A DNA stretch of 32,000 nt from Candidatus Heimdallarchaeota archaeon (GCA_030149205.1 JASBSB010000006.1:630001-662000); one strand, 5' to 3'. Positions 6,355 to 10,271 are shown, counted from the stretch's first letter. The notes: generated by a model not told the origin, from the sequence alone. Numbers and translations: made by a program.

Positions 6355-7431
6355 CTAAAATTTCTTTTTTAGTTTTGTGAACTTTTCCGTATCTCTTATA
6401 AAATTATTTGGATCCAGCCCCTCAGAGTACTTTTTGTAGACAGAGTTTGTAGCATGAATTGTATTGTCATGAATTGAATCTAACTTTAATGGTTCGAGTA
6501 ATTTTGATTCTGCGCTGATATGCTTGTTTAATAAATTAGGATGTTTTAATTTCTTTTGAAAAGATGAAAATTGTATTTGGGGATATTCCTCCAAATTAAC
6601 CGTGGAATATTTTAGGGGGTTATTTTTTAAATTTAGCTGAGATAAATTTAGAAGAAATGTTGTATCGATTGTGATATTCTCAATAAAATTATTGCTTAAA
6701 TTTAGGTTTTTTAAAGCCTGAAGGCATTCTATTGACCTCGGAATATCTAAAATATGATTGCTGGATAGATCCAACTCTTCAATAATTTGATTTTCCGTAA
6801 GTGAGTTAGGAATTTTGCTGATTGAATTTCCAGTCAGTTTTACTTTTGAAAGTTTAGGCAAACCAAGTAAAATTTCAGGGAAAACATCTAGGGAGTTAAA
6901 AGATAGGTCAATTGATTGCAAACTCCTAAGATTTAGTATCTGGGGGGTAACTGAATACAATTGGTTATGTTTAAAATTAAGCTTTTTTAGGTTATTATTT
7001 GCAAATATAAATTTTGGAAATTCATTAAGGTTCATGTTTTCAATTCTTATTTCTTTTACAGTATTACATTTAATTTTGATGTTTAACTGTTTAGTACGCT
7101 CAGAATTAATTAAACCATAATTGGAAATTGTTAGTGAAGATACTAAATCTATGTCAATTCGATCTGAATTATTTAAACCCATAATTTCCAAAGATTTAGT
7201 CTTTGCTACCTTCAGGTTAATTATTTGGTTTATGTTTTTATAGACCTTTATTGATGTGCCAGCAAATAATTCAGGTATAATCAAATCTGGAATTTTGTTT
7301 TCAACAAAACTAAACCGACGTAGATCCAATGTTAGTGTATTTTTGACCTTTTTCACTAAACTTTCAATGGGAGGGTTACTTCCAATTAGTAATAGTTTTG
7401 ATTCAAGTAGAAAGTCCCCAATAGGTTCCAC
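6355..7431 (-). CDS. Leucine-rich repeat protein
   Basis: About 6-7 LxxLxLxxNxL repeats of ~23 aa (LKKLNFKHNQL, LQSIDLSFNSL, LSKVKLTGNSI, IEELDLSSNHI, LKNLNLSNNFI, LSQLNLKNNPL). Confidence 0.9.
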   Translation of the reverse strand: MEPIGDFLLESKLLLIGSNPPIESLVKKVKNTLTLDLRRFSFVENKIPDLIIPELFAGTSIKVYKNINQIINLKVAKTKSLEIMGLNNSDRIDIDLVSSLTISNYGLINSERTKQLNIKIKCNTVKEIRIENMNLNEFPKFIFANNNLKKLNFKHNQLYSVTPQILNLRSLQSIDLSFNSLDVFPEILLGLPKLSKVKLTGNSISKIPNSLTENQIIEELDLSSNHILDIPRSIECLQALKNLNLSNNFIENITIDTTFLLNLSQLNLKNNPLKYSTVNLEEYPQIQFSSFQKKLKHPNLLNKHISAESKLLEPLKLDSIHDNTIHATNSVYKKYSEGLDPNNFIRDTEKFTKLKKKF

Positions 7432-7554
7432 ATATTAAATTATGACTCAATAATATAAAGATTATCCTTAGCAAATTAAAACTAAAAGTTATCTGATTCA
7501 ACTTTGAATTATTCAACACATTTCAACTTTAAAGGGGTTTAATGGGAGAGATTC

Positions 7555-7570
7555 AAAACAATCTTTAAAT
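7555..7570 (+). promoter_or_regulatory. Candidate BRE/TATA promoter of tRNA-Val
   Basis: AAAACAATC-TTTAAAT ending about 23 nt upstream of the tRNA 5' end. Confidence 0.45.
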
Positions 7571-7592
7571 GATTTTCATAGAAATCAAATTA

Positions 7593-7666
7593 GGAACCAT
7601 GGTCTAGCTTGGTATGACGTTGCCTTCACACGGCAAAGATCACGAGTTCAAATCTCGTTGGTTCCA
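7593..7666 (+). tRNA. tRNA-Val(CAC), intron-less, CCA not encoded
   Basis: Acceptor GGAACCA/TGGTTCC plus discriminator A; D arm with GG; anticodon arm TTGCC-TTCACAC-GGCAA; T arm ACGAG-TTCAAAT-CTCGT. Confidence 0.96.
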
Positions 7667-8503
7667 TTGAAGTTTAGAGAGGAAGTAAGCCTTTATCTAA
7701 AAGAAGCTTACTCTCTTTCAGAAAACACAATCAAAGGTTTCGGAATCCCAAAAGGGTTTCAAAGAACTGGTTCAATATTGATTTTACGATCAAACCATAA
7801 ATTAGACGAAAGAATTGGTGAAGCTTGTCTAAACATATATTCATGGACAACTGGGGTTTTTCAACATGTTTCGACTCAGACTGAGGGGAGAATACCAAAA
7901 TTAATCTACTTGGCAGGTCAAAGAAACACAGAAACCATACATATTGAAAACGGAGTAAAATATGTTTTAGACATTGAGAAAATTACGTTTTCCCAAGGTA
8001 ACTCAAACCTTCGAAAAAGATTAATAAATGAGGTTAATGATGGAGAAAATCTATTGGACATGTTTGCTGCAGTTGGTAATTTGAGTTTACAACCAATTCT
8101 ATATAAAACAATAAACTTTCATTTGATTGAAAAACAACCTTACACGTACAAATTTCTTTTGAAAACACTGAAAATTAATGATGTAACCAGAGGAATTACC
8201 CAAAACATAGACTGTAGAGACATTACAATTAAAAATTGGGCAGACAGAATATTTATGGGATATCATGATGTGAATGAAGAGCATTTAACTTCTGCACTTA
8301 AAGCGTTAAAACAAAATGGAATAATTCACTTACATCCTCTCGTGAAAAACCATGATGTATCTGAATGGATTGAGTATTACTCTAAAATCATAGAAGCGAA
8401 TAATTACAGTATAATAGACGTAACAAGTTACACAGTCAAGAAATTTTCACCAGGATTAGAACATACGGAAATTCAATTCAAAGTTTCTTCTATCAAGGCT
8501 TAG
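7667..8503 (+). CDS. taw2: Trm5/Taw2 (Met-10) family SAM-dependent tRNA position-37 modification enzyme, Taw2-like
   Basis: IPKGFQRTGSILIL, ENGVKYVLDIEKITFSQGN, LDMFAAVGNLSL, ADRIFMGYH, GIIHLH, VKKFSPGLEH. The MGY and KKFSPG.H features resemble Taw2 more than Trm5b. Start placed at TTG 7667 because the ORF-track TTG at 7658 lies inside the tRNA. Confidence 0.8.
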   Translation: MKFREEVSLYLKEAYSLSENTIKGFGIPKGFQRTGSILILRSNHKLDERIGEACLNIYSWTTGVFQHVSTQTEGRIPKLIYLAGQRNTETIHIENGVKYVLDIEKITFSQGNSNLRKRLINEVNDGENLLDMFAAVGNLSLQPILYKTINFHLIEKQPYTYKFLLKTLKINDVTRGITQNIDCRDITIKNWADRIFMGYHDVNEEHLTSALKALKQNGIIHLHPLVKNHDVSEWIEYYSKIIEANNYSIIDVTSYTVKKFSPGLEHTEIQFKVSSIKA

Positions 8504-10271
8504 GAATGATTTGTTGAACTATCTTTTGCAGTTCTGAACGAATGGGTTTTAGATCATGTATTCCGGATTTAGTGAGAGGAGATAAAACATTTAACTTTAA
8601 AGTTTGATTGACTATTCGATTTAAACTTAAGTTAGCTGCAATTAAATTTCCTCTAAACACATAGATGAAAAGAAAGTCTGTCCCCTTTTTGTTCTCCGTT
8701 GTGAAAAACAGCTGCTTTGAAATTATTGTAAATTCACCATGCTGAATTAACTTTAAGTGTTGTTCATTCTTAAATATCTCTCTTCCAAAATCATTGAAGG
8801 CTCGAATAAAATTTCCAATGAGCTTATCTGTATCACGACCAATGGGACTCTGAGAATATTGCAAATCAAAAATAACGCTCCCACCTGCATCGACTAGTAT
8901 CACAAATATTGGTTTCTCAGTAAATAGTTGATCTGGGTGAACAAATAATCTTACAAAATCAAATGCCTGGTTAATTTGAAGAGTCCCTATTTCGAATTTT
9001 ATGTTGCTATAATCTTTATCTTGGGAGCTTAATAATTCCAACTGATTTTCAATAATTGGGCGAAGATAAGCAATATTATTTTTATTAGCTATCTTATTAG
9101 CTTCATTTACACTTTGGATTGCATCTTTAAAAGACCCATCAATTAGATTAACCTTACTTTTAAGAATCAACGCTTGAATTGCAAAATCATAGGAATTATA
9201 GTTTATAGAACTCCTGTAAAGATTGTTAGCTGTGTCAATTATTTGAGAGATAGATTCTTGGGTTTGAAATAAAATATAATTCAACAACAATATCTCTGCT
9301 TTCGCAAAACTGGCTTTTACCTGATACTGAAAAATTGTTCGATCATCTTCAATAAGGTCTACTAAGATTTGGTGTGCCTCTAAGATTTTAAAAAGATCTT
9401 TCTGTTCTTTTAACAACAAGGCACGAGTATAGTTATACCGAGTTATCGTGCTTGGATCCTTAAATTTGATTGCCAAATCATTAAATTTTTTAAGTTGTAA
9501 TTCTGCTTTTTCAAATTCTTCTGAATTAATTAAAAATTCAATGTATGATGAATAGGCCCACCCTAGATAGTAGGCATTTTCAAGTTCAGTAAGCAAGCTT
9601 ATAGACTTCTCAAAATCTTGGATAGCTAAGTCTTTCATTCCAATTTTCCAATAACAACTTGCAGAGTTCTCAAGTACACTAGCAAGGTAATTCAGATATG
9701 ATTCTTTCTCAAAATACTCCTTTGCAGGGGTCAGATATTCCAAGGCTGATTTGTAATCACCTTTTGTCATTAGAAAATAACCAATATTATCATAACAAAG
9801 AAACACCCAAGCCTTATCCCCAATCGACTCGAAGGCACTTATTGCAATTTTATAATGCTTAATACCCTCAGAATACATTCCTGCAATAAAATAGTAAAGG
9901 CCATAGGCTTTGTTCAGAAGAGCTAATAAAAATGATTTTTCCATTGGATGAAGTTCATCGGATTTTGTGTTAATTAATTCTTCAAGTAATAAAAGTTGGT
10001 TATACACTTTAGGTTTAGACCCACCACGTAGAGTGACATCGATTTTAAATGCCAAAGCAAAGAGATATTCTGGGGACGGAGGTTCATCTTCCAAACCAAA
10101 AAACATATCAATAGCAGTATTAGCCTTAGTGAACTGCCCTTGCATTGAATGATAAATTATTTTGAGTAAGAGAGCTTTAGAAAGAGGGAAATCAAATGAA
10201 TCGATTATAGATTCATCAACTTCATTTCTTAGAAATCTCTTAAATAAACCTCTTTCTAACTTATCAAACAT
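8493..10271 (-). CDS. TPR protein with C-terminal longin-like domain (Asgard-type)
   Basis: TPR patterns (CYDNIGYFLMTKGDYKSALEYL, VLENSASCYWKIGMKDLAIQDFEKSI); C-terminal PIFVILVDAGGSVIF...LIGNFIRAFNDFGREIF...HGEFTII...FIYVFRG has longin-like beta-beta-alpha-beta-beta-beta-alpha order. Confidence 0.8.
   Translation of the reverse strand: MFDKLERGLFKRFLRNEVDESIIDSFDFPLSKALLLKIIYHSMQGQFTKANTAIDMFFGLEDEPPSPEYLFALAFKIDVTLRGGSKPKVYNQLLLLEELINTKSDELHPMEKSFLLALLNKAYGLYYFIAGMYSEGIKHYKIAISAFESIGDKAWVFLCYDNIGYFLMTKGDYKSALEYLTPAKEYFEKESYLNYLASVLENSASCYWKIGMKDLAIQDFEKSISLLTELENAYYLGWAYSSYIEFLINSEEFEKAELQLKKFNDLAIKFKDPSTITRYNYTRALLLKEQKDLFKILEAHQILVDLIEDDRTIFQYQVKASFAKAEILLLNYILFQTQESISQIIDTANNLYRSSINYNSYDFAIQALILKSKVNLIDGSFKDAIQSVNEANKIANKNNIAYLRPIIENQLELLSSQDKDYSNIKFEIGTLQINQAFDFVRLFVHPDQLFTEKPIFVILVDAGGSVIFDLQYSQSPIGRDTDKLIGNFIRAFNDFGREIFKNEQHLKLIQHGEFTIISKQLFFTTENKKGTDFLFIYVFRGNLIAANLSLNRIVNQTLKLNVLSPLTKSGIHDLKPIRSELQKIVQQIIPKP

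Follow-up and report, generated by a model that had tools for sequence, protein, structure and literature searches.

A tRNA-Val gene abutting the UUG start codon of a taw2-like gene in a Heimdall-group archaeon: a candidate for leaderless mRNA made by tRNA processing

The window, a stretch of 32,000 nt from the genome of a Candidatus Heimdallarchaeota archaeon (here G000), contains one tRNA gene called by ARAGORN, a tRNA-Val(CAC), and directly behind its last base a gene for a TRM5/TYW2-family protein, here named taw2 (Table 1). Upstream, a leucine-rich-repeat protein gene (LRR_8, E 2.7e-21; 6355-7431, - strand) is divergent from the tRNA gene, so the 160-nt spacer at 7432-7592 must carry both promoters. 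Downstream, a convergent gene for a 592-aa TPR protein (8493-10271, - strand) shares 11 nt with the 3' end of taw2. The window also holds a complete archaeal 16S rRNA gene (352-1803, - strand, 1198 bits).

Table 1. Features in and around the tRNA-Val/taw2 junction, with positions counted from the first base of the window.
Feature	Position	Strand	Basis
TATA box CTTTAAAT of the tRNA-Val promoter	7563..7570	+	TTTAAA hexamer 29 nt before tRNA base 1
tRNA-Val(CAC), A37, discriminator A73	7593..7666	+	ARAGORN, Rfam, co-transcript fold
Alternative in-frame TTG in the 3' strand of the acceptor stem; would add M-V-P	7658..7660	+	Frame reading
Predicted tRNase Z cut: tRNA 3'-OH at A7666, mRNA 5'-phosphate at U7667	7666..7667	+	Inferred from tRNase Z specificity
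taw2-like gene, TRM5/TYW2 family, wyosine pathway; 278 aa, TTG start, TAG stop	7667..8503	+	Pfam, NCBIfam, PDB, alignment
Hairpin in mRNA codons 4-18, overlapping the 10-residue insertion	7677..7719	+	MFE -16.4 kcal/mol, z -1.8
First T5 run behind the tRNA, at +190 within taw2	7857..7861	+	Sequence reading

The tRNA-Val is a canonical elongator tRNA by its 7-bp acceptor stem (GGAACCA/TGGTTCC on direct reading), its T-loop, its CAC anticodon and its Rfam RF00005 score (65.3 bits against a gathering score of 29), which ranks third among the tRNAs of the genome. Folding predicts the cloverleaf both for the tRNA alone and within a 148-nt co-transcript, and the gene is the single Val(CAC) gene detected in the tRNA list of the genome. 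The discriminator, A73, is A7666. The bases that follow at once read TTG AAG TTT AGA; TTG occupies positions 74-76, with CCA not encoded, and the same TTG, at 7667, is in frame with taw2 on the same strand, leaving a spacer of 0 nt between the tRNA 3' end and the start codon. A preliminary description of the locus had reported this zero spacer, and ARAGORN, Rfam and direct reading all bear it out. It had also assigned an A to position 37, which the anticodon loop TTCACAC confirms; with A at this position, the tRNA-Val is no substrate for Taw2.

Two ideas about the history of the tRNA gene were considered and set aside. A foreign origin might be read from its identity of 67-74% to Val(CAC) of relatives, but the genome's own Val(UAC) is equally divergent, making this a genome-wide trait. 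Integration of a mobile element at the tRNA finds no support in repeats: the tRNA 3' half and junction have no genomic repeat of at least 13 nt beyond chance 13- to 16-mers.

The tRNA set of the genome is itself unusual. Only 22-23 tRNA genes are detectable in G000 by ARAGORN or Rfam, versus 36-38 in two congeners, and with these tools no tRNAs for Leu, Gly, Ala, Asp, Glu, Gln, Asn or Trp were found, a pattern that points to unusual introns, split genes or gaps in the assembly. ARAGORN also calls an intron-containing "tRNA-Stop(tta)" in G000 (C4:59648-59735) and in the relatives G001 and G003 (L063; L094). Its 3' end in G001 is the same as that of tRNA-Lys(CTT), and the called gene is probably no suppressor but tRNA-Lys(UUU), its intron misplaced by the call.

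What does the abutting gene encode? Its reading frame of 834 nt, closed by TAG at 8501-8503, specifies a product with a TRM5/TYW2 domain (PF02475, 114.8 bits against a cut-off of 28), which it shares with the Taw2/TYW2 proteins PH0793 of P. horikoshii (PDB 3A25/3K6R) and MJ1557 of M. jannaschii (PDB 3A27). PH0793 is its closest PDB relative (E 5e-35) and is likewise 278 aa long; MJ1557 (E 4e-31) and then Trm5b (E 5e-23) follow. The segment ADRIFMGY aligns with ADRILMGY of PH0793, giving the shared motif ADRI[LF]MGY; Trm5 has N-L-P at the position where Taw2 has the MGY motif. The top NCBIfam matches are two Taw2 models (NF047823, 133 bits; NF047824, 126 bits), followed by Trm5b (106.5). The product differs from known Taw2 in staying far below the equivalog cut-offs of these two models (133 versus 550 bits and 126 versus 350) and in a 10-residue N-terminal insertion that is peculiar to this genome in the alignment. 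It looks like a Taw2-type tRNA-Phe imG-14 aminocarboxypropyltransferase, a function predicted here from these similarities.

The likeness to PH0793 is accompanied by the presence of pathway partners. G000 encodes a Taw1-type Wyosine_form domain (C8:54874), a TYW3 (Taw3) protein (C2:161904) and a Trm5b-like paralogue (C2:62265-63302), and judged by this gene content the wyosine pathway around Taw2 is present in the genome. The taw2 product also keeps all 51 invariant columns of a 19-sequence family alignment, without stops or frameshifts. Its identity to the congeners (51%) reflects a divergence similar to that of RNase Z (55-57%), and the best hit in a search of 5.8 billion proteins reaches 54% identity. 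The homologues come, by their source names, from the Kariarchaeaceae, a Heimdall-group family. Thus, taw2 does not look like a decaying gene, and because it is intact, diverges at an RNase Z-like level and is accompanied by Taw1, Taw3 and Trm5b, it should be expressed.

Where does translation of taw2 begin? The frame is open upstream back to 7508, and ahead of the conserved domain it offers only two canonical starts, TTG 7658 and TTG 7667. The next ones are TTG 7778 (residue 38, beyond the invariant P28, G30 and R33) and ATG 8060 (residue 132). Both are unlikely as starts in this family because either would delete family-invariant residues. Read from 7667, the product begins M-K-F-R-E-E-V, which aligns with MKFRD, MRFRD, MKFKD or MNFRD at the annotated starts of most of 18 Kariarchaeaceae homologues; F3 is invariant in the alignment of the product with these 18. 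The N-termini of a few homologues extend 1-5 residues further, and judged by homology alone TTG 7658 would also be an acceptable start. In the predicted fold of the released mRNA, the UUG is unpaired. Translational coupling from an upstream ORF was also considered, since a TGA at 7668-7670 overlaps the TTG, and was rejected: the frame in question is no more than ATG 7599 with a stop two codons on.

These results agree in large part with the preliminary description. It had placed the next in-frame ATG deep in the conserved domain, where ATG 8060 indeed lies, and had judged the N-terminus from 7667 to be of about the expected length before the PK motif, which holds with 26 residues before IPKGF compared with 25 before LPKRW in P. 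horikoshii Taw2. It had also named a start further downstream as evidence that would speak against its reading; TTG 7778 and ATG 8060, with their loss of invariant residues, do not supply one. Its inventory of starts was correct for TTG 7667 and the distant ATG and overlooked TTG 7658 in the acceptor stem.

The expression signals at the locus belong to the tRNA. The box CTTTAAAT is the sole promoter-like element upstream of taw2 on the + strand, and a 13-mer of the promoter, AATCTTTAAATGA, recurs at other genomic sites. The TTTAAA hexamer of the box has the spacing at which TATA elements peak across the genome before leaderless starts (-30 to -27), so transcription of tRNA-Val should begin no more than about 2 nt from G7593 and give a 5' leader that is minimal or absent. 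About 9 of the 23 tRNA genes, tRNA-Val(CAC) and tRNA-Arg(CCT) among them, have a TATA hexamer 27-33 nt before tRNA base 1, which implies transcripts with no or minimal 5' leader. For taw2 itself, the preliminary description had noted neither a TATA element for a start at 7667 nor an SD, and both observations were upheld. The place where a TATA box for transcription from 7667 would lie reads GATCAC, and no TATA-like hexamer of the genome-wide set occurs in 7593-7700. No SD match (GGAG, GAGG or GGTG) lies in the 20 nt before TTG 7658 or TTG 7667, with the 3' end of the 16S rRNA in the same window, GGATCACCTCCT, as anti-SD reference. A scan for bacterial-type promoters and terminators gave nothing above shuffled expectation. 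Directly after the tRNA there is no oligo-T terminator; the first T4 comes at +115 and the first T5 at +190, and this T5 run could be a partial terminator.

Does the host have the means to process such a transcript? tRNase Z is established to cut CCA-less pre-tRNAs directly 3' of the discriminator. Because CCA is not encoded in tRNA-Val, tRNase Z would have to cut after A7666 to give a usable tRNA. A CCA-less gene of this kind needs both 3' trimming and CCA addition, and G000 encodes an enzyme for each: an RNase Z homologue of nearly full length (G000:C4:260656-261525, 252.8-254 bits) and a class II CCA tRNA nucleotidyltransferase of bacterial/eukaryotic type (G000:C7:80327-81934, equal to L104:28-1635, - strand; PF01743 111.8 bits, PRK13299 254.6 bits). 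The models for the archaeal class I CCA-adding enzyme, TIGR03671 and PF09249, have no match in G000; as this genome is 93.5% complete, the lack of class I is apparent rather than proven.

Translation of the released mRNA would depend on leaderless initiation. Start signals were surveyed for G000 ORFs of at least 150 aa with an unambiguous first start codon, with a TATA window of -31 to -26 and an SD window of -15 to -8. A TATA-like hexamer preceded 26% of first starts with ATG, 33% with GTG and 16% with TTG, where control windows gave a background of about 5% (range about 3-8%), and an SD motif preceded 29%, 10% and 28%, respectively (background, about 6-9%). GTG first starts are mostly leaderless-like and TTG first starts mostly SD-led. 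There is also a sharp genome-wide TATA peak at -30 to -27 of start codons. By these signals, leaderless initiation is common in G000 and GUG leaderless starts are frequent. UUG leaderless starts appear to exist and to be rare; some TTG/TATA cases seem, by reading, to have family-typical N-termini.

The scarcity of UUG on leaderless mRNAs may be a matter of transcription. Archaeal RNA polymerase rarely initiates on a pyrimidine, and the contrast between GTG and TTG initiation in G000 fits a purine-start rule for transcription. Genes with 0-nt leaders in Sulfolobus avoid UUG, which a review ascribes to RNA polymerase signals and not to translation (PMC7531240), and pyrimidine 5' ends were taken by Randau as a mark of processing (PMC3491384). 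There is also evidence from translation, since in the bacteria tested leaderless mRNAs start weakly from UUG (PMC8459731). An mRNA whose 5' end is made by processing could be leaderless and begin with a pyrimidine, because the constraint on RNA polymerase would be bypassed.

Is the layout conserved? The preliminary description had proposed this comparison, and the zero spacer is absent from relatives: of 29 genomes ranging from congeners to members of the class, none has a tRNA or T-loop motif near taw2 (within 400-1500 nt), nor is there synteny of the flanking genes. The orthologues of taw2 in relatives are preceded, at about 30-38 nt, by A/T-rich boxes that belong to them, which implies no leader or a very short one. 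The four relatives in which tRNA-Val(CAC) was located (G001, G003, G005 and G011) all have TTTTTT or TTTTTC directly after it, and in two congeners 45 of the 60 tRNAs are trailed within 15 nt by a run of at least T4. With a tRNA-Val terminator and a taw2 promoter present in relatives and gone here, the tRNA-Val/taw2 layout is derived and lineage-specific. The other 22 tRNAs detected in G000 have their nearest same-strand ORF start at least 54 nt downstream, so that 0-nt abutment to a gene is found for 1/23 tRNAs in G000 and 0/60 in the two congeners. The exact 23-nt pattern of the tRNA 3' end had no match in metagenome contigs. Across these 82 other tRNAs and 29 relatives, tRNA punctuation is not a general or conserved organisation. 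The suggestion in the preliminary description that Taw2 expression is purposefully coupled to tRNA processing therefore finds no comparative support, given 0/29 relatives, oligo-T after tRNA-Val in 4/4 and a single case among 23 tRNAs. Variable spacing in relatives counts against conservation, though not against the mechanism in G000.

A second tight junction was seen in a different member of the genus. In G001 (C32; L102:1369-1737), a tRNA-Leu(GAG) extends to 1453, and only TTTTT separates it from ATG 1459, a 5-nt spacer with no space for a promoter. The gene behind it encodes a 92-aa CRS1/YhbY (CRM) RNA-binding protein (Pfam, 36.7 bits) whose N-terminus matches its orthologues. This junction is absent in G002, G003 and G004, and G000 has no match to a CRM gene. 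Tight junctions from tRNA to gene arise sporadically in the Kariarchaeaceae and are no rule.

How, then, might taw2 be expressed in G000? Co-transcription followed by a cut is the most economical account, since taw2 is intact, belongs to a pathway, has no signal of its own and has its homologous start at the cut site. Specifically, tRNA-Val(CAC) and taw2 would form a single transcription unit driven by the tRNA promoter, with transcription starting at about G7593. tRNase Z would cut after A7666, as is required for a usable tRNA, and the same cut would free a 5'-monophosphate leaderless mRNA whose first bases are the UUG of taw2. The leaderless pathway, which appears widely used in G000, would then translate this mRNA. 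The arrangement is derived, through loss in this lineage of both the oligo-T terminator behind the tRNA and the promoter that taw2 once had. We infer this sequence of co-transcription, precursor cleavage and translation from a 5'-terminal UUG from the anatomy of the junction and the enzymes and signals of the host, and consider it, on balance, modestly probable. Several points weigh against it. The layout occurs in one genome only, so conservation and covariation give no support; UUG is weak on leaderless mRNAs of the bacteria tested, and TTG starts in G000 are mostly SD-led. 5'-monophosphate ends may be substrates of 5'-3' decay in some archaea, so the mRNA end may be unstable, and the T5 run at +190 could terminate part of the transcripts.

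Some of these same points suit a fairly recent accident, in which a deletion or rearrangement deprived taw2 of any functioning expression signal, so that the gene is silent or barely expressed and has not yet decayed. The layout is unique to G000, the UUG start is weak and has no SD, a T5 run lies inside the gene, and loss of taw2 might be tolerated, as wyosine pathways vary among archaea. However, 51/51 family-invariant residues are kept with the frame undamaged, the divergence of taw2 from congeners is not above that of RNase Z, and the genome has kept the enzymes of the steps on either side of Taw2, Taw1 before it and Taw3 after it. A random deletion would also rarely put a homologous start exactly at a cleavage site and remove the terminator as well, and we regard an accident of this kind as unlikely, though deserving of consideration. 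An artefact of assembly was also considered, as the genome is a metagenome-type assembly in 12 contigs. The junction lies deep within a 669-kb contig, however, and connects, precisely to the single base, an intact tRNA with an N-terminus that is itself intact, in frame and homologous, so that such an error is hardly credible.

The two other alternatives keep taw2 expressed and place its start or its promoter elsewhere. Translation from TTG 7658 would use unprocessed read-through RNA, and tRNA maturation and Taw2 synthesis would compete for the precursor. This codon is buried in the acceptor stem of a stable cloverleaf and, being neither preceded by an SD nor located at a 5' end, fits neither known archaeal route of initiation. 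The M-V-P extension that it would add consists of bases dictated by the tRNA; that the codon is in frame, and that some homologues are 1-5 residues longer at the N-terminus, leaves this a quite improbable start. Alternatively, a cryptic promoter in the tRNA gene, or a non-canonical start codon, could provide taw2 with an independent mRNA. The sole A/T-rich patch is the T-loop sequence TTCAAATC (7647-7654), and a start set by it would fall near 7677, past the UUG; in-frame ATC, ATA and ATT codons are present, but the next canonical start, TTG 7778, drops invariant residues, and 7593-7700 is free of hexamers from the genome-wide TATA set. An independent mRNA of this type seems very improbable. 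Release of a UUG-initial mRNA by tRNase Z is thus the reading we prefer.

This proposed release by tRNase Z resembles three known systems, and it differs from each. In mitochondria, tRNA punctuation follows the Ojala-Montoya-Attardi model, with cleavage by RNase P and RNase Z/ELAC2 (reviewed in PMC3790967; mentioned in PMC7531240). As in mitochondria, the tRNA abuts a coding sequence with a non-AUG start, and RNase Z excision is proposed to give a 5'-monophosphate leaderless mRNA with its 5' end at or beside the start codon. However, mitochondrial punctuation is the general rule of a polycistronic genome, whereas here it would concern one unconserved junction among 23 detected tRNAs, in a 3.3-Mb archaeal chromosome with otherwise ordinary promoters and terminators. 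When RNase Z of Nanoarchaeum equitans cleaves a tRNA-Val precursor, it "automatically generates" the 5' end of sRNA8 (PMC3491384). There, too, an archaeal tRNA-Val directly precedes a second functional RNA, but that RNA is a C/D box small guide RNA with no translation start, and here it is an mRNA. In T. kodakarensis, tRNA-Lys (TKt3) is co-transcribed within the 159-nt 5' UTR of TK0306 (PMC4247193). In that case, as is proposed for taw2, a protein gene lies behind an archaeal tRNA and is transcribed together with it from a single promoter; TKt3/TK0306 keeps a spacer, and thus yields an mRNA with a leader, whereas the zero spacer here makes the start codon the first triplet after the cut. A search of the full-text literature brought up no account of a chromosomal mRNA in prokaryotes that has its start codon placed directly behind a tRNA.

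What would the finding mean? As a single unconserved locus read from its sequence, the tRNA-Val/taw2 case carries moderate weight. It does hold a warning for annotation, since gene callers may run such ORFs on into the tRNA or discard the correct start codon. If the proposal is true, it would offer a simple design to express genes behind tRNAs in archaea, and it would demonstrate that a 5'-monophosphate end made by processing, together with UUG, is acceptable for leaderless initiation in archaea. It would also be a natural, non-organellar case in which tRNA 3' processing, rather than transcription initiation, sets the 5' end of a translated mRNA, and one found in the archaeal group closest to eukaryotes. 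A wider picture can be offered tentatively, as a plausible suggestion that still falls slightly on the doubtful side. A free-living Asgard archaeon may make an mRNA in the manner of mitochondria, by tRNase Z excision of a chromosomal tRNA that leaves a 5'-monophosphate leaderless UUG message, with a pyrimidine end hardly reachable by RNA polymerase initiation. Such junctions may arise repeatedly in the family, as at tRNA-Val/taw2 and tRNA-Leu/CRM, and at taw2 a strong tRNA promoter, a weak start and an internal T5 run may together set a low level of the enzyme.
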